DNA of 64,000 nucleotides from a virus (UHGV-0023958), one strand, 5' to 3'; counted from the stretch's first letter, positions 25,310-59,662 are shown. Notes: a model not told the origin generated them from the letters alone. A program made the numbers and translations.

Positions 25310-25696
25310 ATGGCTCAAAATGAAAATTATAATCAAGTAGATTTAAGAGTCGGAACAGAAGAGTAGTTTAATGCAAAAGTAGGAACACTTCCTGCAGGAA
25401 CATTATTCGGAGTTACAGATTCAACAGTTTCAAAAGCCGATTTGTCTACTGATTTAAAAAATGAAATAAATGGAAAATACGTAAAGCCAGCTGACGGTAT
25501 TCCTAAAACGGACCTTGCAAGTGCAGTACAGACATCACTCGGAAAAGCAGATTCAGCACTTCAATCAGTACCGAGTAATTATGTAACTAATACTACTCTT
25601 GCTGCAGAAGGTACTTACGGTTTGGCGCAGATTTGGCTCGGTACAGACAACTACCTCTATATCAAAACAAGCGAAAACCAATCGGGGGTGTCATAA
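25310..25696 (+). CDS. tail fibre-related small protein with one in-frame TAG at 25364.
   Basis: AAGGAGAAAA site. The motif KPADGIPKTDLASAVQTSLGKADSALQS is shared with the fibre gene at 49073-50764. Confidence 0.5.
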
Positions 25697-28860: not shown

Positions 28861-29883
28861 ATGGGAAAGCGCACCACTGTATATAACGCTGGTCTTACCG
28901 ATAATTGGGACAGTGTTTCTAAAGAAAATAAAGGGTTGGTTGACGAGTTTGTTGAATATCTTGTATCGGTTAATAAAAGCCCTCAAACAATTCATCAATA
29001 TCATGAACAGTTAAAAGTATTTTTCTGTTGGAATGAAAAGCATAATCAAAACAAATTTTTTGTTGATTTAAAGAAAAGAGAACTAATTAAATTTTTCGGT
29101 TATCTTTCAAATGATTTGAAAGTAAGTCCAAACAGAGTTTGTTCGCTTCGTTCTGTTTTAAGCAGTCTTTCAAATTTTATTGAAAGAATTATGGACGAAG
29201 ATTATCCAACTTTTAGAAATATTGTAAAAGTGCTAGAACCCGTTACAAAAACTTTTGTAAGAGAAAGACCAATTTTGACAATGGATCAAATCAGAGAATG
29301 TTTGGTAAAGCTCGAAGAGGCGAAGAAATATCAGGTCGCTGCATGTCTTGCTGTTTTAGCTGGTAGTGGTATGAGAAAAAGCGAAGTTGTTCAAATGAAA
29401 ATGAGCGACTTTACAGAAGATAGATTGGTTTATGGCGGTCGAGCTTATGAATCTGAAAAGATTAGAACAAAAGGTAGAGGGAAAGAGGGAAAGGTCGTAA
29501 CGAGAATTATTTTTAGGACACTTGTTCCCCTTGATCATTATATTGAATTATGGAAACAAAAAAGAGAAGAACTTGGTATTAAGAGCGAGTGGATGTTTGT
29601 TGCATATCACGACGGTTCTTATCAACAGGCAAACGTTGCCACAATTAATTCGTTTGCGAGAACAATCGGAAATTATCTTGGAGAAGATTTCTTTCCGCAT
29701 AACGTTCGGCATACAACTTCAACTGCTTTGGAGCTTGCTGGGTATCCGATTGATGTTGTTCAATCTATATTTAGATGGGCAGATCCAAAGATGGTTAAGT
29801 ATTATTCTAATATTAGTGAAACAGAATCATTGAATAGCTTTTTCGATAAACTTAACGAAAAAGAAGAAAACAAAGAAGAATAA
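28861..29883 (+). CDS. tyrosine site-specific recombinase / integrase (XerC/D-like)
   Basis: C-terminal HNVRHTTSTALELAGYPIDVVQSIFRWADPKMVKYY carries the HxxR…Y catalytic signature. An SSB-like N-terminal core-binding domain is also present. Confidence 0.75.
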   Translation: MGKRTTVYNAGLTDNWDSVSKENKGLVDEFVEYLVSVNKSPQTIHQYHEQLKVFFCWNEKHNQNKFFVDLKKRELIKFFGYLSNDLKVSPNRVCSLRSVLSSLSNFIERIMDEDYPTFRNIVKVLEPVTKTFVRERPILTMDQIRECLVKLEEAKKYQVAACLAVLAGSGMRKSEVVQMKMSDFTEDRLVYGGRAYESEKIRTKGRGKEGKVVTRIIFRTLVPLDHYIELWKQKREELGIKSEWMFVAYHDGSYQQANVATINSFARTIGNYLGEDFFPHNVRHTTSTALELAGYPIDVVQSIFRWADPKMVKYYSNISETESLNSFFDKLNEKEENKEE

Positions 29884-30571: not shown

Positions 30572-31060
30572 ATGGCTTTATCATAGAAAGATGTTCACCT
30601 TGATTTAGGGTTATTAAAATCTTTAAATAAAAAAGATTTAGAAGACGCTTTAAAATATTTAACTGAAAATCTTGAAAAGATTTTTAAAAGTAATATAGAA
30701 GAAGTTTATAGGATAAATACTTCGGTTTTAAAAGGAAATTACGTTCCATTAGAAGAAATGTTATCTGCTGTTACAGTAGTATATAATATGCATCCTCCTT
30801 CTTGTAAAATATACATAGATGAAGATAAAATCACTTGGAAAGATTCTGAGGGCGAATCTGTACATAGTATTCCTTTAAACAAACAATATTACGATGGGTT
30901 TGTTACAAAAGAAGTTAAAACTTTAAATGAATATTGGATGTTGCCTATATCTTCAATACAAGAAGAATCTTGGATTATTGATAGAACTTATAAGGGAATA
31001 GTGGAATTTATTCAAAAAGAGTTTGTTCAATATATTTCTAACAAATTAAGGAGGAAATAA
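30572..31060 (+). CDS. possible second tail chaperone with an in-frame TAG at 30584
   Basis: AAGGAGG site and ATG at 30572, in frame with the ORF starting at 30758. Confidence 0.4.
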
Positions 31061-31062: not shown

Positions 31063-34000
31063 ATGGCGGATAAAAAGGAAATCGAAATTAAATTGAATTC
31101 AGATGATATTATCAAGCAAATAGAAAAAGGCATTCAAGGAGTTTCTTTTGATGTTAAACTTGACACTGATTTTGGTAAACATGAATATGTCGCTCTCGAT
31201 AAAAAAGTTTAGGAATATTTAAAAAGCAAAAATGCAGTTGTTATTTCAGCTACACAGTTTGCGCATTTAATGGAAACTGGTTATGCAAGTTTTGAAGCAG
31301 AAATAAATGACTTAGAGAAGAAAATTAAAACATCAACCGGTGAAGAAAAAACAAAATTAGAGCAAAGATTAAAAGATGTAAAGAAATTTAGCGAACAAAG
31401 CATGAATAAGGCACATGTTGGTACTGAAATCCATAAACTTCTTGAGTTATAGGAGAAGGGGTTTATTGATTTAAACAAAGAGAGAGAATCTTTAAATAAA
31501 ATCTATGCTCAAATGAATAAAGATAAAAACTCTTTGCAAGAATTAAGGACATTAGTAGGTTCATCATCTTTTGTTACTGATAATAATTTCAAAAAAGCTT
31601 TTAGAAGAGCGCAAGAAATGAATAAGATGAGGGTTTCTGCTGGTATGACTGGAGGTCAAGCAGAAACCGCCCGCGCTTTTGCTTATATTCACAATGGGAA
31701 ATTATATATTGCTGCTGGTGCAACAGATTGGACAAAAACTGGAGGTATGTATGATAAGATCGGAGATTATAAAACAACTTCAGAGTTTAATCCGGTTCAC
31801 AATTTAATTCAAACAGCCGTCAACGCCAATGCGATGCGCGCTGCTTCTGGAAATAAAACAAGAGATGTTAAGGGATAGATTGTTCATTTACCAGTTACAA
31901 AAGATAGAAACCTAAATCAATATACAGCTGGCATGGTGTATAATATATCTACTGGAAGCTGGGAAGAAAATATGGCTTTAATACAAGCTCTTACAGATGT
32001 ATATGAGGGTAAGGGCGATAGATCAAACATCAAAATACCAGGAAGATACACCGGTGGCGTTACAAGTGGAACATATACAGATGTAACTGGGGCAGAAAAA
32101 ACCGTAACATATTGGAATGGTAAAACTTTAAAGAAATGGCTAAAAAGCGATCAAAAAGATATGGAAAGTATGATCTCTTCATTATCTTTAGAGGATAAAA
32201 ATCATTTTTTGAGACTATTGTTTGGGCAAAGTAATGGAAATTTTTGGTATACAATTGGTTCTAGTAATGAGTTGAGAAAAAAATATAAATCTCAATATGA
32301 CTAGATTGTTGCGAATAAAGAAAATAGCAATTACTATCTTCAAGACATAGGTGGTTCTTGGGAAATCGGAGAAGATGGTAGTTGGAAATTTATTCCAAGA
32401 GAAAGTACTTCCGAAAGTAGATAGAAAGCATCTAAAAATATGTATAATAAAGATTGGTGGGAAATCGCATAGGAATAGGATGAAAATAGACTAATTAATG
32501 ATTTTTCTAATAACAGAAAAGATATAGATGAACAAACGGCGGCACAAATGGTCCCAGTTGCCTCTAGAAGATTAGCAAGAATTATAGATTATTCTAATAA
32601 AGTAGATAGAATCACTCAAGAAATAATTAAAAGAAATCCAGAGTTAGAAGGTAGGGATGTTGAAGAGGTTTCAAAAGAATTTTTAAAAGCTACAAATCCA
32701 AAAAATTTAGATAGATATCTAAGATCAAAGGAGCTTTTAGCAGCTTTCCCGAAGGAAGGAACAGATCAAGAAAAATATGAATTTGCATATCAAGGTTTAA
32801 GAGAAGATTCTAATGAGGAATCCAAACTTAAAAATATGCTTTATATAATTGAACAGGCTGGATTATTAGACAAAGTAAAGTCCGGATACATGGATTGGGA
32901 AAAATATTTTTTTAAACAACAAAAATCGATTCCTTATTCTGTTTTAACATCAATGGCTACGGGTAAAATGCTTGGATACGAAGAAGATGAGTTGAGGCCA
33001 GAGTACGCGGAACAGAGGTCTTAGATAAAAACATTAACATAGGTTGATGAAAAATATATCTCAGATATGAAGAATCAGATGGGAGATGAAATATTATCTA
33101 CAGCAGAAGACGAGATTGATTTTTTTAAAAGAAAGATATCCGAACTCGGTAAACAAAAAGGATTGGATGAAGACGCAATAAATTCTGCATTGGAGAAAGT
33201 CGATTATGCTGTTGAAGATACCGCTGCATAGAGTATTGAAGATGTTTAGAAATATATAAATAGCCAATATGATGCAAGTGAAATTGAATCTTTTGAAGCT
33301 TTACATGAAGCAATGGGTGTCGGGGAATTTTCTGGAGAAGAAACACCATTACAAGAAGAATTTGAAAATAGTCAAGATAATCTTTATCAACAAATTGATG
33401 AAAAACAAAAAGAATTCGAGGCAATTTATAGAACGCAAGTATAGGCATTTAATGATTATATTATGTATATGGCCAAAGATATGCTTTCTCTTGCCAATGA
33501 AATAAATGAAAATAGCAAAAAAAATAATAAAAAAAATCAATAGAAGAAGAAACAGACAATTGATCAAGAATCTAAAAAAATTGAAGAATCTTCTAAAGAA
33601 ATTGCACAAAATATTGTTAATAATGCTATAGATAACGCAGTCAAACAAACAGAAGAGGTTGCGCAAATATATACATCGTCAGCAAAAATTTCCAAAGAAG
33701 AAAATAAACCTGTTTTAAAAGACGGTGTTTATGTTTGGTCTAGAACTGGTAGAAGATTATCCGCAAAACAACTTTCTTCACGTGGTTTACAAAATAATCC
33801 TCCTTCTGGAAATATTCAATATTTTGGTGGCCCAATTCCAGTTTATCCAGCTGGTCAAGGTGGAGAATTAGATCCAAATAAAACATATAGAGAAACTGGT
33901 ATAACGGTTGATGCCGAAAATAAGATAGTAAGTAGAACTTTAAAAGAAGTTCAAAAGAGACAAGACGGTGGCAAGCGTGGATCGTCTCAGCTTGATGTAA

Positions 34001-37000
34001 TTAAACAGATCAAAGAAGACACTGGAAAAATTGTAAATATAATGGAATAGCAACCACCCGTTTCTGGTGGTGGTATGCCACCAGAGATTCCAACTACCGG
34101 TGGCGGAACTTCTGGCGGTAGTAAGAAAGGCAAATCTAAAGAAGATAAGCAAAAAGAAAAAGAAGATAAACAGGTTGAAGCTCAAAGAAAAAAAAATAAT
34201 CAAGAATACGCAAAAGCCTTAAAGACAGAATACGATTATCAATTGAAGATTGATGATGCAAGACGTAAGTCCAATATAACTTCCGGTAGAGAAAGAAAGT
34301 CTTAGCAAGAATTTATAAAAGTTGCACAATAGCAATTGAAAATAGCACAAGCAACAACTCAAGAAAGAAGAAAGGCTGTTACAGATAAAGATGCTGCGCT
34401 TATTGAATCTGGCTTACAAGGTCAGTTTTCTGTTAAACGTGCCGCAATATATACAAAAGATAAAGGTGCACGTAATATATTCGACCTTATGGGCGATGAT
34501 ATCAAGAGAGCTTTTTAGAGAATTACAGATTTTGGTGTGGCTGCTCGTATTTTGAATAAAGTTCAAAAAGAAATTGCTAATGTATATCAAAATATATTGA
34601 AGCTCAATGAAGCAATGACAGACATTCGTATTGTAACTGGTGCGAGTGTTGATGAAGCGAATTCTTTAATGACTAGTTATAATAAACTCGCAAAAGAACT
34701 TGGCACAACAACAACCGAGGTTGCAAAGTCTGCAAGCGAATGGATGCGTCAAGGCTATACTGCAAGCGAATCTGTTAATTTGATTACTTCTTCTGTAAAA
34801 CTTGCTCGTCTAGGCTTCATGGATATGAGTTCCGCGACAACATCGTTGACGGCTGTTCTTAAAGGTTTCAATCTTCAAGCTACTGAATCATCTAAAATTG
34901 TTGATAAGCTTACAAAACTCGATGCCGAATACGCGACAACAGCTGGCGATATCGCTAACGCATTATCAAGAACGGCTGCTGCCGCAAAAGCAGCCAATCT
35001 CGATCTCGATCAAACTGCAGCAATGCTTACTACAATTATTGATATTACGCAGCAAGATGCTGGTAGCGTTGGTAATGCTTTAAAGACGATTTTGTCAAGA
35101 TATGGAAATGTTAAAGCTGGCGTATTTGCTGGAATGGCAGAAGATGGGGAAGACGCATCTGAAAGCATAAACGATGTTGAAAAGGTGCTGAATGCGATTG
35201 GTATTCAGATCCGTTCGACTTCAACAGAAATGCGTGGTTTTGATGAAGTCCTCGATGATTTGGCTGAAAAATGGGATAATTTAAACGATGTCGAACAAAA
35301 CGCCGTTGCAACTGCTATGGCTGGTGTAAGACAGCGCAACCAATTTTTAGCCTTGATGCAAAACTACAACCAATATAAAGAAAGTTTGGAATCTTCTCGT
35401 ACATCTTCTGGTACGGCAGATGAAAAATATGCTGCGGTTATGGATAGCATTGCTACTTCTATGCAAAAAATACAAACTGCGTGGGAAAGTTTTACACAAA
35501 AACTTCAAGCGAGTGGATTTGTAAAAACATTCTTTAAGGCAATTGCAGGTGTTGTTGAAAATATTGATAAGATACTTCCAAATATTGTGGCGATGTTGAC
35601 GGCTATTGCTGGAAAACACCTTCCAACTATAGGAATGAAGGTCCAAGGTTTATTTGGCGGTGGAAGTCGTATGGGGAAAGGTGTCAGAGCTGCTTTCGGA
35701 CGAAGTGGATCATTTGAACAAGAAAGTTTAAGAGAACTTGCAGAATACAAAAAAGGACTTGGCTATAAAGATGAGGAACTTTCTGAAGCAGAAAGAAAAA
35801 TCCTTGGTTCTGGGCACCAAGAAAATACCGCAGATGATAAAACAGCATCCAATACCGATTAGATTAAATCTGATGTTTCTACTATAAAGGCTTATTTACA
35901 AAACAAAAAAGCAGGAGGTGCTACCACTCCGAATACTGGAGATGATACAAATCAAAACGTAGAGGCTGGTGGCAGTCAAAAAGTTTCTAATAAAAAAGGT
36001 AAAGCTAAAGGAACAAAATTTTTAAAAAAAGCTAGAATAGCCTCTGGTGTTACGACTGGAATAGCATCGGGACTTTCTTCTGGTATGACTGCTAATTATG
36101 GTGATTTTACAAGCACTGCTGACAAAATATTTACTGGTGCTGCTTCTGGTATATTTTCTGGTGTTGGAACCGCTCTTGCTGGTCCTATTGGGGGTATCAT
36201 AGGCACGGCGTTTGGATAGAAAATCGGTGAGATATTTTATGGACAATTTCACAAAGAAGAAATTGCTCGTCGCAAACGTGTTGATGAAGCTAAGAAGCAA
36301 CTTGAAGCTACTCAAAAGGTAGAATCTGCAATTACCTCCGCCGAAGAATTAATAAGCAAAGATAGAAGCGAATGGGGTTCGGAAGAGTATAAGCAAGAAA
36401 AAGAAGTAATTGACTAGATGCGACTTGGATTACAAACTTCAAGCACATTAGCAGAAAACTTTGCAAAACTTTCTGGTAAGCCTACCGATGTTTCTGATTG
36501 GCTTCTTAAGTTATCTTCTGATTTAACATAGCTTGATAAAAGCGTTATTGCAAATTATCGTGCGGCTCAAATTTTGACGGAAGCGCAAGAAACATATAAA
36601 GCTGGCGAAGAAGATCGTGCGGCGTTATATGATAAGCTTGGAAGTGCAGAAGCTTCCATGCTTAATCAAATTCAGAACATAGATTCTGCTTCTTCGGAGT
36701 ATCTTGAAAAACATAAAGAATATGAGAGCAAATACGGGAGGACAGTTGAATCTGGTATTGCTTCAATGCAACAAGCGCAAATGCAATTAGATGCGTTTAC
36801 TGATGCGTTGCACGAAGGATATATGCAAGCCGCATTTTATTCTTCTGGGGTTTCTCAAATGTCTTCGACGGATATCGCCGGGGCGAGTCTCGATAGAGTT
36901 GTTGCCGAGGTCGCTCGTGCTTGGGCGGCAAGTGATGCTACTGCTTTAGTGTTTGCTAATGGAATGCTTTTGGATAGTGCAAGAAAATAGATTGTAGCGT

Positions 37001-39387
37001 ATTTAAAAACACAATCTGATTTTACGTCATTAACAAAATCTCCTGGTGGAAGTTTCCGAGAAATATTAGATGCTAGAGATGATATTGGAGATTATTTAAA
37101 TAAAACTGGTAATGATTATACCAAATTAAAAAATATAGTCAATCAACAAGATTTTAAGAAAATAAGAGAATTTTTTGGATATGATTCTAAGGATACAACA
37201 AAAGATTCTTATATTAAAGATATAATTGATAAAATCAATAAAGCTGATCCAACAAATATTGAATTGATTGCGCATGGATTAAACATGACTGTTGAAGAAG
37301 CAGAAAAACTCAAAGATGTTATAGGAACAATAACCCTTTCTGATATTTTAAACGGAGCGAACAAACTTTTAGATAAGTTTGACGAATTAAATACGATTCT
37401 TGGAGAGATTAGCGATAATGATATTTTATCTCCAGATACAATGAATAAAATAGTCAAGAATTTTCCAAATTTATTAAAAGGAACCGATGAAAGTGGAAAT
37501 GTTACTATATCAAGAGATAACATTATAAGAAATCTTACAAAGTAGATTACAGATCCAAATGGTACTTACGCAACTGGATATATTGGTAAAGTGGCAACAG
37601 GAGCAAAAACCGAATCTAAATACTGGGATTTATTTAAAGATGTTGCTGATTAGTATTTTACCGGAGATACGCTTAAATAGATAATGAATTATAGCAATTT
37701 CGAAGGTGCGGAATCTATAATGATGAGACCGGAGAATAAGTAGGCATTGTAGAGATTTGGTGAAATAGTTGCGACTTCAACAGGGATTATTGATTAGCAA
37801 GAAAGAGCTAGAAATACATTAATTGAAGCGGAAAACAAATCTTTGGAAAAACAAATCGATAATTTACAATCCATTAAAGATTCAATTGGAGATATCAATA
37901 AACAAAGAGAAAAAGAGCTTAATTTAATAAAGGCTCGCGATGCGCTTGAAAATGCGAAAAAAGAAAAGAAGCTTGTTTATCGTGCCGGTATTGGATTTGT
38001 TGCTACGTCAGACTCTTCTGCAATATAGGAGGCTCAAAAGAAAGTTGATGATTTGCAAAATCAACAAACTCAAGAAGATTTACAATATCAAATAGATTAG
38101 CTTAATCAACAAAAAGCAATATTAGAGGCGATTAAGAATGATCCCAATATGGAGAGCTTAAAAAATACTGCGGAAATTATAAAAGATGAATTGATGTAGA
38201 AAACGCCAGGTGGTATTCTTGGGCTATTAAAAAATTTAGATCCAGAAACTTTTTCTGATAATGTTCGAGACGGCATTGTGAAAAGTATTACAGAAAAAAC
38301 GCTAGCCGTTGGGCAAGATACATACAGAAACATAAAGTTTTCGTTAGACACTTTGTTATAGGATTATAAAGATTTTTATGATACAAAAAATTATGAAGGA
38401 AGTGGACAATCTGTTCAATCTATTTTAGAAGATCCGTCAAATATTTATTTTTCTCGCGTTTCAAATTCAATAAAAGAAAAACAAAGTGCTATAGAAAGTA
38501 AGAAAAAAGAGCTAGATAATTTAAAAGAGAAGTATTTTTCTGGCGATAATAAATCGTTATTAGGAAGTTATGGCGGAGCAATTGAAAATATACAAAATTA
38601 TTATAAAGAAAAATATGGAACAGATGATTATTAGGATGTGTCAAAGTTAAAATTTAACAAAGAGGGTATTTTGTTAGATTTAGAAAATGCTTCTGGTGAT
38701 TATCATGAAAATTATTTTACAATGGTCAAATACACAAATGAGGCGGTATCCGATGATTCTTTTACCGATAATAAACATCGAAAATATAAAAAATCACCCG
38801 GTAAATCTTGGGAAAGCTTGGGTAAATCATGGAACGATATTGTAGAAAATGATTTGTTATAGCCGGGAGATTTCGTTTTAGTAGATTTAAAAGGAAATAA
38901 ACTCGCCTATGTTGGTGTTGATAAAAAATTATATTGGGTACAAACTAAAAAGCCGAAAGATTAGAGTTATGGTGGTTATGGCGATGTTAATGACACAACA
39001 AAAGGAAATAACCCCGATATAGATTATTCTAATATGCGAGCCAAAGGTGATTATAATTATCAAGGTGGCAACGTTCTCATTAACGAACTTGGTACAGAAG
39101 CTATTGTAACACCACAGGGTACGCTTACATCACTTCCTTCTCATTCTGGTATTGTTCCTGCCGATCTCACAAAGAATTTGTTTGCTCTTGGCGAGATTGC
39201 TCCAAATCTTATTGCGACTCTTCGTAATCAGATGCCAAATGTTTCTAAATCGAATTCTACTAGCAATGATAATTCTACGAATATCGGAACTGTTTATGCA
39301 ACATTTAATGCAGATAGCGGATTTGATATGAACAGATTTATGATCGACTTGCGCTCTGCCGCTGGCAACACAAGACACAACAACTAA
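31063..39387 (+). CDS. tail tape measure protein, 2,774 aa, a single frame containing 35 TAG codons
   Basis: Frame 1 runs continuously from ATG 31063 to TAA 39385-39387 with no TAA or TGA. The twelve ORF-track pieces are all in the same frame and are separated only by TAG. The segment 34537-35862 carries the tape-measure core pattern (…TEVAKSASEWMRQGYTASESVNLITSSVKLARLGF…) and Gly-rich hydrophobic stretches. Confidence 0.75.
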
Positions 39388-39457
39388 ATAAAATAATGAA
39401 ATAACGCGGTTGAAATATATCGCGTTATTTCAAAATAAATATATAAGGAGAAAATAT

Positions 39458-40168
39458 ATGTATTATTTGGATTACGCAAAAAAAGTTGGAGATAGATATA
39501 TTTTGAATTTTTTTGCTGATACAGCTGAAGATATCGCAGACGTTCCAACAAATACACCATATATCACACGTAATGGTACGAATTATGGTGTTCCGCTTGA
39601 AACATCTATTGTTACAGTTATTGAAAATGATGTTCGTAAGAATTATGTTCTTCAAAACGGTGTTTATATTGCGGGGGGTGATGTACCCTCTGTGCTTGGT
39701 ATGCTCGAAGCAACAGAAAACAAAACATATAAAGCTTCTGACGAAGACCTCGAAGGGTATTCAACCGTAACTGTAAATGTAGAGCCGAAGTTGCAATCGA
39801 AATCTGTTACGGCAAATGGCACCGTTACACCTGATGCTTCTTACGATGGTCTTTCGCAGGTTACGGTTAATGTTCCCCCTACAACTCCAAAATTACAAGC
39901 TAAAACAGCAACAATAAATGGCGTTGTTAAACCAGATGCTACTTATGATGGTTTGTCGCAAGTAACTGTAAACGTTCCAGCTACTCCTATGGAAACAAAG
40001 ACGGTTGAGCCGAATTTCTCGAATGGCAGCGAGGTTCTTACACCGACAGAAGGCAAGGTTTTCTCTTCTGTGACTTTAACAAAACCCGCTACGTTGCTTC
40101 CCGAAAATATTAAAAAGGGAGTTATTATTTGTGGTATCGAGGGTACTTACGAAGCCGCTGGCGCATAA
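39458..40168 (+). CDS. distal tail protein paralog A with an internal tandem repeat of about 35 aa
   Basis: MYYLDYAKKVGDRYILNFFADT… is paralogous to the N-terminus of the gene at 40901. The repeat is KLQ.K..T.NG.V.PDA.YDGLSQVTVNVP. Confidence 0.45.
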   Translation: MYYLDYAKKVGDRYILNFFADTAEDIADVPTNTPYITRNGTNYGVPLETSIVTVIENDVRKNYVLQNGVYIAGGDVPSVLGMLEATENKTYKASDEDLEGYSTVTVNVEPKLQSKSVTANGTVTPDASYDGLSQVTVNVPPTTPKLQAKTATINGVVKPDATYDGLSQVTVNVPATPMETKTVEPNFSNGSEVLTPTEGKVFSSVTLTKPATLLPENIKKGVIICGIEGTYEAAGA

Positions 40169-40178
40169 TTGGTGATTT

Positions 40179-40838
40179 ATGATGAAAAAGTCTAAAAGAA
40201 TTCTTATGATGATTGGTTTTTATTTTCTTTCATTCACTTGGGGGTTCATAATGAGTTTCATTGGGTTGTTTGTCGTTTTTGGTTCGTGCTTAATTACAAA
40301 AACAAAACCGAAGAGATTTGGTTTGTGTACGTATAATATTATTGGTGAGTATTGGGGCGGATCTAATTGGGGATTTGGTTTTATCAGCGATAAAAGGTCT
40401 CCGAAATCAACTTATTGCCATGAACACGGTCACGGTTTACAAAATATAATTTTTGGACCGCTTATGCCGTTTATTGTTTGTATACCAAGTGCTGTCAGAT
40501 ATGGACTGTTTGATTGCGATACAGATAGAGATAAAATTAAGTTTTTATCGATTTTCTGTAGTTTGTTCGCTTTGGCGTTCTTTATTCCGATGATGATTGG
40601 TATATTTGCAAGCTGCTTGCCAGTAATTATTGTGTTCGGTATTTTGTTTTTATACGCTATCATTTTGATTGTTTGGCTTGTATTTTTCGAAGCACCGAAA
40701 CACAAAGGAAGACTGCACCCAGATTATGATTCCATCTGGTTTGAAGGGGATGCTACTCGCAGGGGAACTGCGTTTATGGAAAAGTGTTTTCCAGAAGAAA
40801 TTTATAAAGTTAGTAGACTACCCATTAGCTTTAGCTGA
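40179..40838 (+). CDS. multi-pass membrane protein with an HEHGH (HExxH-like) motif; a moron between paralogous tail genes
   Basis: Four to five hydrophobic segments, the sequence CHEHGHG, and a local GC shift. Confidence 0.4.
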   Translation: MMKKSKRILMMIGFYFLSFTWGFIMSFIGLFVVFGSCLITKTKPKRFGLCTYNIIGEYWGGSNWGFGFISDKRSPKSTYCHEHGHGLQNIIFGPLMPFIVCIPSAVRYGLFDCDTDRDKIKFLSIFCSLFALAFFIPMMIGIFASCLPVIIVFGILFLYAIILIVWLVFFEAPKHKGRLHPDYDSIWFEGDATRRGTAFMEKCFPEEIYKVSRLPISFS

Positions 40839-40900
40839 TGGGTGATCCACATGAGTAGTTCACAAAAAAATAAATATGATTAAAAAAAGAAGGGGGTATT

Positions 40901-41737
40901 ATGTTATATTTAGATTATGCGAAGCCCGTTGAAGGTGGTTATATACTTAACTTTTTCGCTGATAAAGTTGAAGATATGGAAGCTATAACTGGCGGAAAAG
41001 AATTTGTTACAAAAAACGGCACGAATTACGGCGTTCCCCTTAAAGGTTCTACTGTCGTAATAACTGCTCCCGATAAAGAAAAGAAGACGTTTATTCTTGA
41101 TGAAAATGGCGAATGGAATGAAGGCGGATTAAACCCGAATGAGTTTTACACGAAGGAAGCTGCTGACGAAAAATTTATGGAAAAGGTAGTTAACATTAAC
41201 CTCTCCCCTGATACTGCTACACGAGGCACTTTGACAGAAGAATAGTTAGCTACCTTGATGAAAGACGATAATAATTATATCACTCTTAACAAAGAAATCT
41301 ATCGGTTAGCAGACAAGCAATACACCACAGAAATTATCTCCTATGTCAATACAGGTGTGGGTAGTAATATAATTTATATCACTGTTTCTACAAGAGCTTG
41401 GACTTTGGTTGTAGGGGAGAGGCCAAGTACGGTTTATAAACACGAGCTTACCCTCGTTGATAAAGATAATCAACACATAGAGATATCATTGATTAACAAT
41501 TGGAAGTTCGAATATGACGATCAGAATTTACGTGAGTTGGTGGGTGGTGGCACGTACTCAACTGTTGGACGTTCTGATATTAGCTTTGACGGTTCAGAGT
41601 TAGGTTTATACAATTTTTTTAGTATAGACGGTGCTACTGTAGATGGTTATGCTTATTATATTAAAACAGACGGAACAATAGGTATACAAGAGTTAAGTAC
41701 AGTACGCGTTGATAGTGACTTGGTGACGGACTTTTAA
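40901..41737 (+). CDS. distal tail protein paralog B with an in-frame TAG at 41243
   Basis: AAGGGGG site. The ORF-track pieces at 40901 and 41255 share frame 2. Confidence 0.45.
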
Positions 41738-42064
41738 CATTTAAACCTCATATCCCGCTGGTGAAAAAGACGCTACGGTGCATCTGGTGTGATAACTGGC
41801 GGAACCGCCACTTTAAGTGATGGTACGAGTGTACCGATAACTATAACTACCGCCGAAGCATAATTCGGCATAAACACTTTATCTCCCTTTCCCCCAATTT
41901 GAGAGGGGAGGAATAATAAATAAAATTTAGGTTTTATTATACAGCCCAGTTTTTGTTCGGTTTTCTGTAAAAAAATCGAACACCAATAAGTTTGGGTGTG
42001 GCGAGTGAGATACCTCCCGCCCGCCACAACTCAATATAAAAAATAAAAGAGGAGGCAAGAGATT

Positions 42065-45000
42065 ATGGCAGTTTTTAAACCGACAAATTGTTCGCCGTAT
42101 TTAACATCTTTTGATATTACATATTTGAATGAAGGACCAATTTATTTTCAATGTAAAATAGATACGTCAAACACAAATATTGACGGATATGCTATAACTG
42201 TTTATGATAGTGATAATCATAAAATTTTTCCGCATAATGGAAACGCAGTCGATAATATATCATATATCAAAGATCTTCATTATGATACAACGAAGATTGG
42301 ATCGATTATTTCTGATGATGGAATTTCTGATTTAAACACTGGTTTAAACGGAAGTTATTTAAAAATTCCTTTTGTTGTAAACAATGGTTAGAATAGTTAT
42401 CTAACAAACACAACGAGAAAAAATGTTGTTGTGTATAATAAAAAAACAGACGGAAGTTATGAAATAAAAGATAATTCTGGAAATATCATTAAATTATATA
42501 ACGGAAATCAGTATAAATGGACAATAACTTTATATTAGCTCGGACAAGACGCTGTTGATAATAAGAAATCTAGGCCAGAAGAAATTAAATATTATGATAT
42601 GACAGTGGCTTCTGGCAAAATTCTTGGATCTACCAATGAAAGAATCCAAAGCTATCCGAGCGATCAAATTTATAATGATTACTTTTTACAATTATATAGT
42701 GCTCCAGTTGTTAATGTTGGTCCTGATTTTTAGATTACAAAAATTACAGGAGATGTAAAACAAGTTGGAACGAGGGTTAGAATTAAAGATTACGATTCGT
42801 ATCTCGGACACATGTATTTACAAACTGGACAAGATGGTTTGTCTGAGAAAAATTTAGATATATCAAATGTTTTCCAAGTTTTTAAAATGAGTAATAACCC
42901 AGATGATTTGGGCACAAAAGACAAAGTTGATTTTTGCATTAGTCAAAAATACTTTGTGCCAAAGTATTTCCAAGAATCTAAATCTGATTCATCGGCAGCA
43001 TATTTATCTCAAACATTTGTTATTGCAAACGTCACTGGTTCAAGTGCCTCTGAAACTTTGGAAAAAGTGAAAGATGTTTATAATAAGCCGTTTTTTGAAA
43101 ACACTGAAACTTTGTATGGTTTACCTTCATCTAATCAATATTACTCTAAAATTTTTAGTGGTTATGACGGAGACAATTCTCCCCCGGTTATATTTGGTTA
43201 GTCAAGAGTTTTATTGAATACGGAAAATAATAACAACGAATTAGATGAAAGTAGTGGGGCCGTAACTGGTACTAAGGATTATGGACCGAATGGAGGTAGT
43301 TCTAAGTTTAACGGTATATGGATTCCAAAAACACCAACTGTTGAAAAGATTGCAGAACATTAGAATGAAGGTAAATACACTGGAACAGATTATAAAATAA
43401 CAATTCAATGGTATCGTTCTTCTGATGCTGATACATGGGGAGAAATCACAAACAAAGTCGTTTTAGATACCAACAATTTCAACAGTGATTATGATTCGTT
43501 CGCAGGTCAAAATCTTCAAGCATATACTTCTGAGCAAGAAGGAGAGCAAGTTTCAACCGGTACTATTAATGATACGCTTATAAAATTTAACAACGAAGAA
43601 CCTGTTGAAATTTATTCAAATAATTCTTACGAACATAACTATGGATTTATTTATAAAAACAACATGGACATAACTGCATGGTTAGCGTCTATAACTGGTG
43701 AGACAACGCATGTACTAACTTATACATACATTTGTAAAAACACTTGGAGGGTAACTGGAAAGCCAAAGTGGCGCGAAGGCGATAATTTTAATGATTGGAT
43801 TGGAAATCCTATTTATTTTATAGAGAAAGATAATAATATATTTCAAGACAAGCATCAATATCAAATTTTAGCATATCGTAATCCAAGTAACTCTTACTTA
43901 CAAGCGGAGGTTAAGTTTAATTTAAATGAACAATATACTACTTATTATAGTGGGAATTATGGTTTAGATTGTTTTAATCCACCAGAGGAGTGGGAGAAGT
44001 GTGAAATACGCGTTGTTTGGAAAAATGATGCCGCAACAGATAAAAACTTAGATCTCCCAGAAGTTAATGATACAATTCAGTTTTTTATATATGATATAAC
44101 AACTGGAATTATTAATTTTATTTCTCCGTCTACAGCCGTGTCTGTTGGAGATAAAATATTCAATAAAGATAATTCTTCTTCGAATGTTGTGTTGTTAAAT
44201 AAAACTGTTTGGGCGATTGGACAAGAGCAAGATGTTTCTACATATAAATATAAAAACAATGAAGGTCGGTTGGTAGACTATAATTATTATCCGATTTTAA
44301 ACTTCAAAACAAACGATTTATATTCAATTAAAACATTCTTCCGTTCGAGCAGCGAAAATCAATTTAGTTTATATGAACGTCCAACTGTCGATTTAGAATT
44401 ATACGGCGTTTCAGGCGGTGCAAAGATAGAAATTAATGCTGCTGATAAAACATGCAAAACCTATGAGAGAAGTATTTTTGCATAGGCTATTTATAATCAA
44501 ACCAATTTGGTTCAGTGGAGAAATTATCAATGGTTTCTTTACGATGTTCCAAATATTTACGAAAACGCCGATGCGTATAAAACAGCAGCTGGATCTGCTT
44601 TGACAAAATATTTAAATCCGAATGATCTTATTTTGCAATCAGAAGTTGGTTATGATAAAGAGATAAAATATACGTTTTATGGTTTGGCAGAAGAACACCA
44701 TTGGTATATTATATCACTTGTTTTGACAGATCAATACGGAACAATTATTACAAAGAAAATTGCTGTTTATACTGATTTTACAGTGGAATTAGAACAAGAT
44801 AAAGATTGGGTTAATTATGGTCTTCGGTGTGATTTAACCGGCGTCGATATGTGGTTTGAAGATAAATACGGTTATATATATCCGAATTTGGGTGATAGAA
44901 ATTATTTGATAGAAACCAACAACAAATATGCAAACAATCCAAATGGCGTTACGTATTCTGATAGTGTTATGAATATATCTGATAACTCAGAAGGTGTTTT

Positions 45001-46201
45001 ATATGATAGCGTATATAGCAATGACGGATTAAGTTCTTGGAATTCCCCTTCTAAACAAAATTTAACTTTTGATCAGAATAAAGGTATCGAATTTACGACG
45101 AGGGTTACAATAGACAGTTATCAATACTCGGCAGAATTTCTAAACGTTGTTATTAATACAGATGGCGGAAACACAAAGAACTTGGTTTTGAAACCAGAAG
45201 ATTTATATATAAGTTCTAATGATTGGCCAGAAGGTTATAAAGTTGGTTTCCCGAATTATGAGTGCTATAAGATTGGTAATTATGCTATCGGGGAAAATCC
45301 GAACGTATATGTTTATGGGAATGTAACAACCGATTTGTTCCCTAATTCTGATTCTTATAATTCTTGTATTAAATATAATAATTACTATATATCTTATATT
45401 CCTTCGAACGTAGTTCCCCTTGGAGCTAATAAACCTTCTATAAATATTCCAAATTCTTGGTATTTTATCAATTATGATGAAGAAAATAGTGTTAAAGATA
45501 TAATAAGTGATAAACCGATAAAGATAAATAAGATGATTTATGCTTTAGATGATCCCGATGGGCTATAGAACAAAGATGTATTTTATAATTTGCCAATATT
45601 TATAAGAAACGATTTATCTTTAAGCGGGAAAACAATAGAAAATTTACCTGATGGAACTAAGGTTTATAGTCTTTGGATGGATAAAAACGATGAGATAATT
45701 ATACCAACAATAGTTGCTATAAATGAATCTGCTAATACTTTTTACTATTGTTATAGAAAAGTCAATAATCATCAAGAGGATATATCAGATAATATCTGGG
45801 AAGATACAAAAGAAAACGGAGAAGATAATATTTGGGAAGACGAAATTACAGTAGAAGATACTCAATCTGACCATTTAAAAAATAAAGATGGCTCGTTGAA
45901 TACGATTAGAAATCGTTTGTATGGCAAAGTTTTATATTTTTATGTTCAGTGGAGCGGAAAAGAAAACGACGATATCACATACGGCATTGTTGGAAATGTA
46001 TCACAAAGAGTAATAGATGTTGATTCTGAATTGTCGTTGACTTCTGTTAATCCAGTTGAGAACAGGGTAATTACAACTGCTTTAAATTCAAAATTAGATA
46101 CAACAACGTTATCTGATTAGAACACATTTGGTATATTTAAATGTTATACAGATAAATTTGGAATATTAACTTTTGTTACTGGGGAGGGTGAAAATGGCTA
46201 A
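42065..46201 (+). CDS. large tail/baseplate protein, about 1,378 aa, with 8 in-frame TAG codons
   Basis: AAGAGGAGG site. Frame 2 is open from 42065 to TAA at 46199 with TAGs only at 42389, 42536, 42731, 43199, 43361, 44483, 45566 and 46118. Confidence 0.5.
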
Positions 46202-47789
46202 TATTAAGATAGGTATAAGTAGCGGTTATAAACCACAAGATTTTGGTGATCCTTCAAGAAAATCAAGAGTTTCTTATTTATATGCTTATAACAAAGACGA
46301 ATCTTCTCCGTCAAATAGAAATTTTCCAGCGATTTTTTCAAAGAAAGCATATAATGATATTATGAACGACGAAAATAAAGATTTTTTATTGTTTGCGTTG
46401 AACTATACAGCTGAAAAAGTCAACGGTTTGACAATGCCGCTCCCAGATGGAATTGTTTCAGAAGGATTAAAAACGTTTCCGCAAAGGTCTATTTATAAAA
46501 GAGAAGTGTGGAGAGATGATGACAACCAGGTGCATTATGAAAAAATATTACACCCGGTTGTTTTACAAAACAATGTTTCTCGTGTTATAGACTATAATGT
46601 AACAACAAATAGAAATTATGAATATATAATTTATTTGACAGATCAAAGAGGAAGTCAAACTATCCAAAGAGAAATACATTTCCCAATAACAACAAAGTGG
46701 GATTATTGGTCTATTTCTGAATTACATAGAACAAGCGAATAGAATGTTTATACAACATCCGAAAATGAAACGTGGTTATTTAAATTTAATGTTGAACCGG
46801 GGGAACAACAGCAGAATGTTTCTAAATCGCAACAAGATACGCTTGGTAAATACCCTGCTTTTTCTTATGGAAAAAAGAATTATACCACAAGTTCTGTTTC
46901 TTGTTTGCTTGGCTCCGAAATGCTTCCCTTTGACTTTTTAACAACGAATTATGTTCTTGTAAGAAACGAAGATGGTAGCGTTTCATGGGGTTTGGCGCAA
47001 GATGTCAGTGAGGTATATGGCGGATATACAGAATCTCGTTGGAAGAAACTATTAGATCAATGCGGAATGAACGAACGTGTTGTTAATATTTTTGACACAA
47101 AAATCACATCTAATGACAGTGTTGATATGTTGAATGAGTGGAAGAAATTGTGCAATTCTGGAAACCCGAAGTTGTATAAAAATTCCAAAGGTCAGTCGTT
47201 TATTATACAGATAACCGAATTTTCAAATTCAATTAATGAATCTTGGGATAAACAGCCGATAACTATCAATTTTAGTTGGACAGAAATTGCAGATGCAAGC
47301 GATGCAAGAATAATACAAACAACCGAATTCACAACCGATACAAGCGGAAGTGTTTCTGGTGGAGGAGATGAGCCAGTGATGGATTATAATATTCTTTCTA
47401 ATAAACCACAGATAAACGGTGTTGAGTTGGTTGGAAATAAAACGGATAAAGATTTATATCTGGAAGCAGAAGGTAATATTAAATCTATTTCTGGAACAAG
47501 TCCTTCTGTAAAATTAGACAACAACATCACTTATAATCTTGGTTCGATTAACGGATTAACAACAACATTTGGTAGTATTAATGACGAATACTATAAAAAT
47601 CGTCAGTGTTCACAGGCAGAAATTAACTTTACTGCCGCAAGTAATTTCACATATACACCTCCAGAAAATACAACAATTATAGGTGGAGATGTTGAGGGTG
47701 GAAAACTCAGTGCTAAAAAGGGCACTTCTTACAACATAGGATTTGGATATGTTGATAATGTTATGTATGCCGTTTGTGGCATTAGATAA
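46194..47789 (+). CDS. baseplate/tail protein with one in-frame TAG at 46740
   Basis: GGGGAGGGTGA site. Frame 0 is open to TAA at 47787. Confidence 0.5.
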
Positions 47790-47811
47790 AATATAAAAAG
47801 GAGAGGTAAAT

Positions 47812-49062
47812 ATGATTTATAATTCATCTTAGTTTTCTTTACAAGGAAGCGGAGAGGTAATTTCTATTACCTCTCCTTATTTATTTGATCAATATTATAA
47901 TTTTTATTATATAGAAGATTATATTAAAAACAAACACATATAGCCGAGATTTAAAATATATGTTTTAAATGCCGATGAAACCGAGAGATATGAAATTCCA
48001 AATGGAGATATTATCAGCGGTAGTTATTCCGAAAACTATCAAAATGGTCAGAGGAGAACGTTGTCCTTTCAATTAAATAATAATAATGGAGAATATACGC
48101 CGTCAATTAATCATTTTTGGACTGGGCAGAAATTTTCTTTTTATATTGGATTCAATATGAATAACGATGAAAATAGTGTTATTTGGTTTAGAAAAGGAAT
48201 CTATTCTTGCCAAAATCAAAGCGTTGATAATTCATCTGATACGAAAACGGTTAGTATAGAAACAGCTGATAAATTTTCTGTTTTGGAAGGGAAAAGCGGA
48301 ACATTGGAGTATTCTTATACAATTAATGTAGGAGAGGATATTGAAGAAGTTATAAACAACATATTAAACACGGACAATGGTTCTGGTTTTATGTTGGATT
48401 CAAAAGGCATTGTTTATCATTCTTTATTTAAAGATAAAAAGGTAATTTCTCAAATATCAGAATCTGCTGGCGCAACTTACGGTTCAATTATTTTAAAACT
48501 TGCAGAAATGCTTTCTGCAGAAGTTTTTTATAATGTCAACGGTAATTTGACGTTAATTCCGAAACAAGAAGTTATCAACGATTCCGACAAGCCGATTTTG
48601 TTTTCTTTTAATGCAGACAACGGGGATTTGATGACACATAATTACAGTTTTTCTTTCGAAGATATTGTAAACAAGGTTATTGTTATCGGTTCAAATGTTA
48701 ATGGAAGCACGTGTAGAGCGACGGCTGTCAACAACTCCGCAGATTCTCCAATCAGTGTATCAAGAATTGGCTATAGAACAGGATCAATAATTAATGATTC
48801 TTCGATTAATTCAGATTATCTTGCGCAGGAAAGAGCTGATTATGAATTAAGAAAAGTAAGTGTTGCTAAAACAAGTGTAAGTAACACGGCGTTATTGAAT
48901 CCTTTAATAGAAGTAAACAATTTAATAGAAATTACCGATAATTTTTACGGTATAGAAAACGAAAAATTCCTTGTTCAATCGATTTCTTTTTCGTTAGATT
49001 ATAGCGGAACGATGTCGATTTCAAGTTCAAATATAAACAATCTTTCATTTACGAATAGATAA
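47812..49062 (+). CDS. tail/baseplate protein. The N-terminal extension contains TAGs at 47830 and 47941 and an embedded perfect hairpin.
   Basis: AAAAGGAGAGGTAAAT followed by ATG. Frame 1 stays open for 83 codons up to the ORF starting at 48061. The alternative is a TTG start at 48061 with a GAGGAGA site. Confidence 0.4.
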
Positions 49063-49072
49063 GGAGGGACGT

Positions 49073-50764
49073 ATGAATAAGACAGAACAAGCAAATGGCT
49101 TTTTAAATATAATACGCTCCATTATCAAAGAGGAACAAGATAAGCGCGACAGGGTTGAAATTTGTCAAATTGATAGCGTAAATGAAGATGGGACAGTAAA
49201 TATAAAAATGCTTTCAGATTTTGAAACTGTTAGAATAATTCCAAATATTTCAAATCAATCGATATATAGTTTTAAAAATGGAGATTTGGCTATTATTTAT
49301 ATGATTCAAAATCAATTATCGAACGCGTTTATAATTGCTAAATGCGGTCCGACAAATGAAAGTTTAAGAATATCTTCGTCGGATGGTGATACAACTGGCG
49401 GAGGCACTGTTATACAAAATATAACATATCAAAGCGGAACTACTAGCGGCGTAACATCTGTCAATGGTAAAACGGGCGAGGTTACTATTACTGCATAGGA
49501 TCTTGGAGCAATTACTGAAATTCCAGATGTAACACAAATACAATCAACAGATATTTCTTCGCTAGTTTATGATACAACAAATGGTGCCGCTTTTGAAATA
49601 AATAACAGTATTATCTTTTCAGATGGAACAAAAAATAACCCACTTTTAAAATTCAATTTGCCCATTATCGGCATCAATGGTATTAGTATAGATAAATCTA
49701 ATGGTAAAAATGTTCTGGAAATTTCAGGAAAAGATTTGCAAGATTTAATTAATTCTATATCCTTGACTAGTGGTACGAATAATGGAACTTTAAAATTAAC
49801 CGTTGGTACAACTATTGTTGATAATATTAAAGTTACGGGTTTTGATAAAAAGCAAGACCAGCTTAGCGAGAGCCAATTAAATGCTGTTAATTCTGGAATA
49901 ACTTCAGAAAAAGTAACCACTTATGATGAATACCAGTCTTAGATTAATTCTAAATACACAAAACCCGATGGCGGTATTCCGAAGTCAGATTTGTCTTCGG
50001 ATGTTCAAAGTTCTTTGGTGAAAGCCGATTCTGCCTTACAAACCCATCAGAAAATTACAACTGGTAGTGCGAACGGAACGATTGCCGTTGATGGGACTGA
50101 TGTTTCTGTTAAAGGATTAGGTTCTCTTGCGTACAAAAATTCTTTGACAAAAACAGATGTTGGACTTGGAAACGTTGATAATACATCGGATGAAGCCAAA
50201 CCAATTTCTACCGCAACACAAACAGCCTTAGATGGGAAAGTAAATACTACAACAACGGTAAACGGTCACGCGTTATCTTCTAATGTTACTATTACACAAT
50301 CGGATGTCGGTTTGGGTAATGTTATTAACGCAGGGCAAGATCCAACACCAACATCCGATTCTATAAATTATGTTACTTCTGGTGGTGTTAAAAGTTATGT
50401 TGACAACGGGTTAAACAAAAAAGCGGATTTACTAGTTAATGAATCAACGGTTACTACTGTATAGTCTGGCCGCTTGTATGAGTTTACTGATATTCACAAT
50501 CCATTTAGTTTATCTATCAATATGGATACATTTAAAACATCTAATGATGTTTCGCAGATTTATTTCACGGCAGCAGCTAATTTTGATGTTGTCCTTAATG
50601 TTTCTTCTGGTGTTAGAATAATCGGAGATGGTGTTAATGCGAGTACCAAAAAAATTTCTTGTGTTAAAGGCAATTCGTATTATTTTACTTTTGGTTATAC
50701 AAAAAAAGGTGTTTCTATTGTAAGTAATATTGATGCAAATTGGAGTGAGATAGCAACGGTATAA
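49073..50764 (+). CDS. tail fibre protein with 3 in-frame TAG codons
   Basis: AAGGAGGGAC site. It contains the conserved tail-fibre motif DVGLGNVDNTSDEAKPIS (present twice). TAGs at 49496, 49940 and 50462; TAA stop. Confidence 0.55.
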
Positions 50765-57050: not shown

Positions 57051-57061
57051 AATAAATTTTA

Positions 57062-57100
57062 AGAGGAGTGTCAAAATTACTTGACATTCCTCTTTTTTTA
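57062..57100 (+). terminator. Rho-independent terminator: 13-bp stem AGAGGAGTGTCAA/TTGACATTCCTCT followed by T7. Its 3' arm contains the -35 box of the next promoter.
   Basis: Read from the sequence. Confidence 0.6.
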
Positions 57101-58529: not shown

Positions 58530-58540
58530 TGTGATATAAT
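58512..58540 (+). promoter_or_regulatory. sigma-A type promoter (TTGACA, 17-nt spacer, TGaTATAAT) for the suppressor tRNA
   Basis: -35 at 58512-58517 and -10 at 58535-58540; about 70 nt upstream of the tRNA. Confidence 0.5.
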
Positions 58541-58562
58541 ATATATGTTATAAACGCGTGAT

Positions 58563-58580
58563 GTCAAATCTAGATTTGAC
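58563..58580 (+). promoter_or_regulatory. perfect 18-bp palindrome GTCAAATCTAGATTTGAC between the promoter and the tRNA; candidate operator or leader hairpin
   Basis: Nine-plus-nine perfect inverted repeat. Confidence 0.4.
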
Positions 58581-58610
58581 AAAACGTGATTATATAAAAT
58601 TACTGTACAG

Positions 58611-58685: not shown

Positions 58686-58718
58686 GTAACGATTAAAAAT
58701 AAAATGGAGGTAATGCTT

Positions 58719-59611: not shown

Positions 59612-59662
59612 AAAGAAAAAATGCAATCCGAAAGATTGCAAGATTATAAGGAGAAGAAATTT

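Follow-up and report, generated by a model that had tools for sequence, protein, structure and literature searches.

In-frame TAG codons and the tape measure gene

The window was a 64,000-nt stretch of the virus UHGV-0023958, a 64-kb part of the genome (roughly ~130-150 kb) of an uncultured tailed phage. The subject is the TAG codons lying in frame within its genes, above all within the tail tape measure gene at 31063-39387, and a tRNA gene at 58611-58685 that presumably decodes them. An earlier description of 31063-50764 made from sequence alone (the sequence-only reading) had proposed a genome-wide reassignment of TAG from stop to sense, probably glutamine (Gln); it did not mention the tRNA.

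Genes were called on the plus strand with only TAA and TGA as stops. The window had 33.6% G+C, and all of its plausible genes lay on the plus strand: 51 closely tiled genes, most with strong Shine-Dalgarno sites, made 94% of it coding. Their 20,090 codons contained 66 in-frame TAG, as against the approximately 66 initially proposed, and no in-frame TAA or TGA, and genes were terminated by TAA (41) or TGA (9), consistent with both behaving as normal stops. The other two frames of the same stretches contained 616 and 1,094 TAA and 281 and 931 TGA. Open reading frames (ORFs) of at least 250 codons comprised 11,816 codons under the standard code and 16,933 with TAG as sense, which was the comparison of gene calls that the sequence-only reading had suggested; the standard code decreased long-ORF content by 30% and fragmented the tape measure, tail and homing-endonuclease genes.

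The features on which the argument depends were as follows.

31063-39387, + strand: tail tape measure gene, 2,774 amino acids plus TAA stop, frame 1, 35 TAG
58512-58540, + strand: sigma-70-type promoter (TTGACA, 17-nt spacer, TG, TATAAT), 12/12 matches, extended -10
58549-58594, + strand: predicted leader hairpin, containing the perfect 18-nt palindrome GTCAAATCTAGATTTGAC (58563-58580)
58611-58685, + strand: amber suppressor tRNA, anticodon CUA, encoded CCA end (ARAGORN; Rfam tRNA model 52.8 bits, gathering score 29)
58719-59093, + strand: gene directly downstream of the suppressor tRNA, TAG at codons 3 and 13, both in 10/10 relatives

The tape measure gene was a single frame of 2,775 codons in which the only internal stops were 35 TAG, with no TAA or TGA, exactly as first described. 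A 2,774-codon frame free of TAA and TGA had a chance of ~1e-55 at the lower off-frame TAA/TGA rate (4.5% per codon). The translated frame matched 11 tape measure PHROGs, and the match to phrog_4211 extended over residues 1026-2512, crossing many TAGs. The TAG counts given earlier for 42065-46201 (8), 49073-50764 (3) and 395-1621 (4) were likewise reproduced.

Ten related IMG/VR contigs of 94-148 kb were used as relatives; sets of ten were found with the tape measure core, the capsid protein and the tRNA as queries, and an NrdD query drew in more distant phages. Tape measure orthologues in the 10 relatives had 14-36 TAGs, mostly at different positions (29-36 in each complete gene), and 134 alignment columns contained TAG in at least one of the 11 genes, compared to about 30 per genome. 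The conserved core of the window gene (residues 1000-1600) had only 3/35 TAGs, and its Gln-type codons were 109 CAA, 15 CAG and 35 TAG. Among close relatives (L001-L010), tape measure genes varied from 2,637 to 3,049 codons, with large indels. Because their identity was only 60-94%, compared to 95-100% in the flanking genes, the tape measure gene appears to be a hotspot of divergence or mosaicism.

If the TAGs were genuine stops, the region would consist of pseudogenes, fragmented genes or assembly errors, and the standard code does break it into many short ORFs. This possibility was effectively refuted, with a negligible remaining probability, by the length of the TAA- and TGA-free frame, by ten independent contigs that held the same frame with differing TAG positions, by the profile matches that cross TAGs, and by peptides downstream of TAGs that were conserved as protein. 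The shared frame had no TAA or TGA, and TAG positions did not coincide with protein termini; those near gene ends were occupied by CAG or CAA in some relatives and followed by conserved sequence.

Once TAG counts as sense, a terminal TAA or TGA is built into every gene call, and the claim that no gene ends only at TAG was informative only through the five TAGs located within 30 codons of a gene end (5693, 18132, 46118, 56964 and 57015). Position 5693 (codon 250 of 4946-5716) was CAG in L030, and the TAG was followed by the conserved C-terminal peptide ADGKRD. Position 18132 was CAA in L024 and L029, with the 14 residues after the TAG conserved as protein; 46118 (codon 1352 of 42065-46201) was CAG in five relatives and CGG in one; and 57015 was TCA (serine) in two relatives. 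Position 56964 was TAG in all 3 available relatives, and the 27 residues downstream evolved as protein. No window gene therefore needs TAG as terminator: four of the near-terminal TAGs were replaced by sense codons in relatives (CAG or CAA for three, TCA for one), and all five were followed by a conserved peptide. The sequence-only reading had also pointed to a TAA or TGA at most 27 codons after each terminal TAG; this was true from 18132 to TAA 18179, but the distance from 56964 to TAA 57050 was 28 codons. The backup stops did lie ahead of a ribosome-binding site (before 18191) or a terminator (57061-57094). As evidence, a backup stop soon after a terminal TAG was rejected and given no weight: a TAA or TGA within 28 codons was expected by chance in 72-95% of cases at this base composition.

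The end of the probable capsid gene (8172-9257) differed among relatives. Codon 353 was TCG in the window and TAG in four relatives (L026-L029, around 11040-11080), in which AAG CAT TTT and then TAA or TGA followed the TAG in place of the window C-terminus SKFGTITLA. This is the one place where TAG could act as a terminator. The altered end abutted a variable homing-endonuclease slot (window 9258-10890), whose endonuclease gene in the window (9394-10890) had its own perfect promoter (9270-9298), was absent in two relatives and was replaced by a different endonuclease in four. The change in the capsid end may result from co-conversion by homing.

Amino acid at UAG and the suppressor tRNA

Orthologues were extracted with TAG kept as an unknown residue and aligned, and the codons opposite each window TAG were read in well-aligned context (local identity of at least 0.7). 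Codons in relatives were TAG 127, CAG 30, CAA 24 and others 17, so that Gln codons made up 54/71 of the non-TAG partners. Under a likelihood model for each amino acid, based on an empirical table of replacements between window and relatives, the log-likelihood of the partners was -93 for Gln, -337 for lysine, -390 for arginine and -396 for glutamate, with the remaining residues also worse than Gln. An all-against-all comparison of tape measure genes gave 159/207 partners as Gln codons (88 CAA and 71 CAG). CAA is two mutations away from TAG, and its abundance opposite TAG indicated synonymous exchange among CAA, CAG and TAG and not mere mutational neighbourhood. Three independent lines, namely codon substitution in the 10 relatives, the phage CUA tRNA and the tape measure profile matches crossing TAGs, together make it very probable that UAG is a glutamine codon in this phage genome, as had been proposed.

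Assignment of UAG to another residue (pyrrolysine, lysine, glutamate, serine, tyrosine, leucine or tryptophan) was extremely improbable. Some partners were lysine, glutamate, asparagine or serine codons, but Gln was ahead of every other residue by more than 240 log units, and CAA was as common a partner as CAG. ARAGORN labelled the tRNA 'tRNA-Pyl', but this label is set by the anticodon alone. tRNA-Pyl is without the D-loop GG, the UUCGA-type T loop and the two-base linker between acceptor and D stems. All three were present in the window tRNA (T loop UUCGA), a canonical cloverleaf of elongator type according to the Rfam model, and pyl genes were not found among the scanned window proteins.

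Homologues of the GIY-YIG endonuclease (395-1621), the other alignment originally proposed as a check, were less informative than those of the tape measure gene. Codon 66 fell within the Pfam GIY-YIG match (residues 2-88), in agreement with the description of one TAG inside the nuclease domain. There was no orthologue in the relatives' loci used for codon comparison. A copy with 92-93% identity was present on four other contigs (L042-L045), and its database protein had Gln at all four TAG positions; in the DNA, codon 136 was a real CAG and the other three were TAG translated under code 15. The Gln at those three positions was discarded as evidence for being circular, as it came from the database's code-15 gene caller. 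Translation of the gene on L042-L045 with table 11 did not yield the database protein; the public collection already uses TAG as Gln. This copy had extra TAGs at codons 97 and 313, opposite CCT and CAG in the window. Distant homologues had, at the four TAG columns in order, glutamate, lysine or Gln; asparagine or aspartate; histidine (29) and Gln (4); and glutamate or aspartate. The prevalence of histidine at codon 136 and of glutamate at codons 66 and 374 might be taken in favour of a residue other than Gln.

The tRNA at 58611-58685 was the only one found by ARAGORN in the 64-kb window, and a tRNA with a CUA anticodon was present in 10/10 related contigs. Its sequence had a U1.C72 mismatch, G2-C71, G3-C70, G10, G73 and the anticodon C34-U35-A36. 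In E. coli, the identity set of tRNA-Gln for glutaminyl-tRNA synthetase (GlnRS) comprises a weak 1:72 pair, G2-C71, G3-C70, G10, G73 and U35. The window tRNA appeared to fit this set, although the rules are those of E. coli and may not be the host's, and it is presumed to be the decoder of UAG as Gln. Ranking by global identity against 31 tRNAs (30 annotated in phAss-1 and one ARAGORN-predicted CUA tRNA of the uncultured phage LR756500.1) gave identities of 0.49-0.71; Gln tRNAs ranked low, but no isotype stood out and the ranking was regarded as uninformative. A BLAST search of the tRNA against phages was also uninformative, with one partial match in an unannotated 462 kb phage at a site not called a tRNA by ARAGORN.

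Several results weighed against Gln at UAG. About a quarter of the non-TAG partners were not Gln codons (asparagine, lysine, glutamate, serine, histidine and arginine); these are explained by ordinary amino-acid replacement and are compatible with minor mis-incorporation as well. Distant GIY-YIG homologues, variable or mostly histidine at the TAG columns, appeared neutral. Position 1:72 of the tRNA was a U.C mismatch, whereas known tRNA-Gln has U-A or A-U there; a BLAST search of the tRNA against E. coli genomes gave no match, and its amino-acid identity was inferred from E. coli identity elements. No release-factor or synthetase gene was found among the scanned window proteins, which represent under half of the genome, and the only lead to the host was the Erysipelotrichaceae contig described below. 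Gln at UAG is thus a supported prediction from sequence.

Both hexamers of the promoter at 58512-58540 were invariant in 10/10 relatives, and this element would serve as the promoter of the suppressor tRNA. Conservation in all 10 relatives also covered the palindrome, the tRNA and the beginning of the gene that follows. The fold of 58545-58690 had z = -4.2, and the stem of the leader hairpin was conserved across the 10 relatives with variable central bases. The palindrome also makes a minus-strand TTGACA; it may serve as an operator, in processing or in transcriptional pausing.

Theta ribozymes, which are similar to those of hepatitis delta virus (HDV), mature suppressor tRNAs in recoded gut phages, and CCA is encoded in only 4.5% of theta-associated tRNAs (PMC10879173). 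The window shares with those systems a suppressor tRNA in a gut-type recoded phage, but its CCA is encoded and a protein gene starts 34 nt after the tRNA. A permissive Rfam scan of 58400-59000 (E-values up to 10, general HDV-type models) found no HDV-like ribozyme beside the tRNA, only the tRNA itself. Between the tRNA and the first downstream ATG lay 18 nt (58686-58703), and between the tRNA and the conserved start (58719) 33 nt. A theta-ribozyme-associated tRNA was thus not supported, given the absence of a match to general HDV-type models (Rfam may lack a dedicated theta model), the encoded CCA and the lack of room.

Distribution of TAG among genes

The proposed genome-wide reassignment held for the decoding machinery but not for codon usage: TAG was present in 15/51 genes and absent from 36/51, and 51/66 TAGs were located in 30572-50764. 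The share of TAG was calculated for each region as TAG/(CAA + CAG + TAG).

395-1621, + strand: GIY-YIG gene, TAG 4/16 Gln-type codons (25%)
~1.8-16.6 kb, + strand: portal gene, probable capsid gene and other head genes; head module, TAG 2/162 (1%)
16.9-27.4 kb, + strand: fibre-like genes; fibre module, TAG 3/100 (3%)
30572-50764: tail module, TAG 51/285 (18%)
51-64 kb, + strand: dUTPase, NrdD, HNH endonuclease, NrdG, DNA methylase, AAA ATPase and DnaB-like helicase genes; probable early region, TAG 6/124 (5%), two genes recoded

The 51-64 kb region was treated as early because near-perfect host-type promoters cluster there (50867, 57081, 58512 and 59583). Besides the tape measure gene and 58719-59093, TAG was present in the following genes.

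395-1621, + strand: GIY-YIG homing endonuclease gene, 4 TAG (codons 66, 124, 136 and 374)
4946-5716, + strand: head-module gene, 2 TAG (nt 5081 and 5693); codon 46 was CAG in nine relatives
16854-18179, + strand: structural gene, 1 TAG (nt 18132, 15 codons ahead of TAA)
25310-25696, + strand: tail gene (phrog_1718 tail protein), 1 TAG; codon 19 was CAG or CAA in relatives
25696-27396, + strand: tail gene, 1 TAG
30572-31060, + strand: gene just upstream of the tape measure gene, 1 TAG (codon 5), TAG in 10/10 relatives
40901-41737, + strand: tail-region gene of unassigned function, 1 TAG
42065-46201, + strand: large tail-region gene, 1,378 amino acids, 8 TAG
46194-47789, + strand: tail-region gene, 1 TAG; codon 183 was CAG in four relatives and CAT in two
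47812-49062, + strand: tail or baseplate-hub-like protein gene (phrog_1887 tail protein, E = 1.9e-41), 2 TAG, one at codon 7
49073-50764, + strand: tail fibre-like gene (phrog_35419 tail fiber protein), 3 TAG; codon 290 was CAG in L019
56241-57050, + strand: last gene of the dUTPase/NrdD/NrdG operon, 4 TAG, three conserved in relatives; terminator at 57061-57094

The gene at 42065-46201 had no PHROG profile match; its codons 158 and 223 were CAA or CAG in some relatives, and its codons 379 and 807 were TAG in all of them. The conserved ATG of 58719-59093 followed a GGAGG motif, and a profile search with this protein gave no informative family match.

TAG was distributed unevenly among genes (Monte Carlo p = 0.0035), and genes that had diverged more among the relatives had a larger TAG share (Spearman rho = 0.54, p = 8e-4). 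Seven CAG-preferring genes had 0/68 TAG, compared to 62/575 in CAA-preferring genes (Fisher p = 0.0016); the probable capsid gene had 14 CAG, 0 CAA and no TAG. In relatives, sporadic TAGs occurred in the portal, recombinase, NrdG and other genes that had none in the window; the codon opposite them was CAA or CAG in nearly all cases. The nucleotide following TAG was numerically less often T and more often a purine than that following CAA or CAG (not significant, p = 0.13). On the simplest reading of these results, TAG serves as a working, if slightly disfavoured, synonym of CAA and CAG for Gln and turns over quickly: drift brings it into genes under weak constraint, and selection removes it from those with high expression. 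It accumulated in the fastest-diverging tail genes, whose copy number is presumably low, and within them in the regions of lowest conservation; CAG preference would in turn mark high expression.

Gln codon use was sharply split between the genes at 8172-9257, 7592-8152, 15568-16626, 59621-60742, 60759-61928 and 62516-64000 and the tape measure gene. Genes that preferred CAG also tended to prefer AAG (Spearman rho = 0.59), suggesting that some of the genes are under translational selection.

Decoding of UAG would proceed as follows. Host RNA polymerase would transcribe the tRNA from the consensus promoter, and expression would be early, as suggested by the position of this promoter with the other consensus promoters, beside replication and nucleotide-metabolism genes. 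Charging of the tRNA with Gln would fall to the host, through GlnRS or through glutamyl-tRNA synthetase plus amidotransferase; the amber suppressor supE of E. coli illustrates that a CUA anticodon is tolerated in tRNA-Gln. The charged tRNA would then outcompete host release factor 1 at UAG. Suppression would have to be nearly complete, since a read-through of 95% per codon was calculated to leave only 17% of full-length tape measure protein with 35 TAGs.

Suppression might instead be leaky or conditional, with TAG as a regulatory brake that times late genes, as in the model of Borges et al. This possibility was judged unlikely; it would extend the assignment to Gln and not exclude it. UAG would terminate early in infection, and genes with TAG (tail genes, 56241-57050 and 58719-59093) would be made after the tRNA accumulates. 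The concentration of TAGs in one tail module would agree with a timer, but the head genes, which are also late, were nearly TAG-free, and the holin-like gene had 0 TAG. Most replication and nucleotide-metabolism genes were TAG-free, as a timer would have them; against this, two genes of the promoter-rich early region did carry TAGs, and the perfect host-type promoter of the tRNA in that region would have the tRNA expressed from the start of infection. The tyrosine recombinase of the window was TAG-free, like the integrases of recoded prophages (10.1101/2021.08.26.457843), but sporadic TAGs were present in the recombinase, portal and NrdG genes of relatives. TAGs were located near gene starts (codon 5 of the gene at 30572, codons 3 and 13 of that at 58719 and codon 7 of that at 47812), which would suit a brake; the quick turnover of TAG positions would not. 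As the share of TAG tracked divergence and codon preference, near-neutral drift with selection on expression suffices, and a pure late-gene timer fitted less well than a disfavoured synonymous codon.

A distinctly improbable variant is that TAG use belongs to a circuit centred on the suppressor tRNA that controls dosage or timing. Its parts could be the tRNA with its perfect promoter and structured leader, the two unvarying TAGs (codons 3 and 13) of 58719-59093, a gene probably co-transcribed with the tRNA, and some neutralisation of release factor 1 sufficient for reading 35 TAGs in one gene. If so, 58719-59093 and 56241-57050 might encode a new anti-termination or code-switch factor. The invariance of the two TAGs in 58719-59093 was discarded as a sign of special function, as other TAGs in equally conserved genes were also invariant (codon 5 of 30572-31060, codons 379 and 807 of 42065-46201).

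Relation to other recoded phages, host and minor features

A survey of gut phage clades has covered the recoding of TAG to Gln and the suppressor tRNAs that such phages encode, with 26-71% of genes recoded in each clade (bioRxiv 10.1101/2021.08.26.457843), and the recoding has been proven by metaproteomics in crAss-like phages (PMC9523058); the statement that the pattern is known from gut phages was thus borne out by published, proteomically validated cases. Annotation tools address TAG recoding (PMC11210395). The NCBI taxonomy has a 'Caudoviricetes code 15 clade', in which the proposed genus Phassvirus is placed (phAss-1 OQ749652, BK046881 and BK025033).

In its in-frame TAGs within recognisable genes, the alignment of TAG with Gln, TAA and TGA as the only stops and the phage CUA tRNA, the window agreed with Caudoviricetes of code 15 (TAG = Gln); for a late-gene bias of recoding (structural and lysis genes rich in TAG, early genes poor) the picture was mixed. 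Gut phages with this code (crAss-like phages, Lak megaphages, and the Garnet, Amethyst and Topaz clades) share with it in-frame TAG in essential structural genes, alignment of TAG with Gln, a CUA tRNA, retention of TAA and TGA as stops, and partial recoding (29% of genes here). A phage-encoded CUA suppressor tRNA is common in code 15 phages but not universal. The named TAG clades have genomes of ~22-34 kb or >200 kb, whereas this lineage, with ~94-148 kb, is separate; their recoding extends across structural and lysis genes, whereas here it was concentrated in one tail module, with head and holin-like genes TAG-free or nearly so. In contrast to those systems, no release-factor or synthetase gene was seen in this window.

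The phAss-1 group (~136 kb) has 28% of ORFs recoded, a tRNA-Sup-CTA and long tape measure genes interrupted by TAG (PMC10607447). Phassvirus resembled the lineage of the window in genome size (~133-138 kb), in its tRNA-Sup-CTA without a dedicated synthetase, in the 28% of recoded ORFs, in the human-gut-type source and in a very long TAG-interrupted tape measure protein (~3,150 amino acids there, 2,774 here). It differed in tRNA content, as phAss-1 has 36 tRNA genes, three of them suppressors, compared to one tRNA in 64 kb here, and in TAG density, which was ~3x lower here (67/16,933 long-ORF codons compared to 218/16,863 in phAss-1). Megablast found nothing similar to 31063-50764 among 50,697 phage records, and a tblastn with the portal protein gave one unrelated record only, with 24% identity. 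Membership in Phassvirus was ruled out on both results. The lineage is without a close GenBank relative, its relatives being the IMG/VR contigs.

E. coli supE (glnV44), a tRNA-Gln(CUA), shares with the window tRNA the UAG-reading anticodon, a weak first pair, G2-C71, G3-C70, G10 and G73. supE is charged by the normal cellular machinery and competes with release factor 1. It is a weak suppressor that arose by point mutation in a cellular gene, whereas the window tRNA is a conserved phage gene for which near-complete suppression would be needed; its 1:72 pair is U-A and that of the window tRNA U.C, and the latter had no BLAST similarity to E. coli tRNAs.

The host is probably a member of the Bacillota, as hinted by the strong Shine-Dalgarno sites and by a capsid-gene match in an Erysipelotrichaceae bin. 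This was the one weak match of a search of bacterial genomes, a capsid gene with 59% identity on a 4.4 kb contig binned with a metagenome-assembled Erysipelotrichaceae genome. The host might itself read TAG as sense and the phage mirror its code, as phages of altered-code hosts are recoded throughout (TGA, code-25 hosts; 10.1101/2021.08.26.457843). Such a mirrored code was very improbable: the phage had its own suppressor tRNA, conserved across relatives, and TAG was present in only 29% of genes, compared to ~90% for phages matching a recoded host (10.1101/2021.08.26.457843). No bacterium is known to read TAG as Gln, which also argues against a mirrored host code.

The window and its relatives need annotation with translation table 15. 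They add to the phages with TAG = Gln a lineage of ~94-148 kb, probably infecting Bacillota and without GenBank relative. It is the lineage that is new; the phenomenon itself is already well documented in gut phages, and its understanding is unchanged. The 11 genomes, with quick turnover of TAG to CAG or CAA, are a clean within-lineage data set that bears on the question of whether recoding is regulatory or largely drift. The main value thus lies in correct annotation and in showing how a reassigned codon is spread over the genes of one lineage.

Three homing-type endonuclease genes were found: the GIY-YIG gene (395-1621), a homing or HNH type (9394-10890) and an HNH gene (53574-54527) between nrdD and nrdG. 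Only the first had TAGs (4), which suggests that this gene circulates among recoded phages. Other window genes identified were the holin-like gene and the tyrosine recombinase. The latter (28861-29883; Phage_integrase and SAM-like domains) was located between the fibre and tail modules of a lytic-looking genome; relatives L003 and L005 had 1-2 TAGs in this gene. A similar N-terminus (roughly 'LDYAK..g.YILNFFAD'), noticed by eye from translations, was shared by the structural genes 39458-40168, 40901-41737 and 16854-18179, the first two of which flanked the gene of a predicted multi-pass membrane protein (40179-40838).

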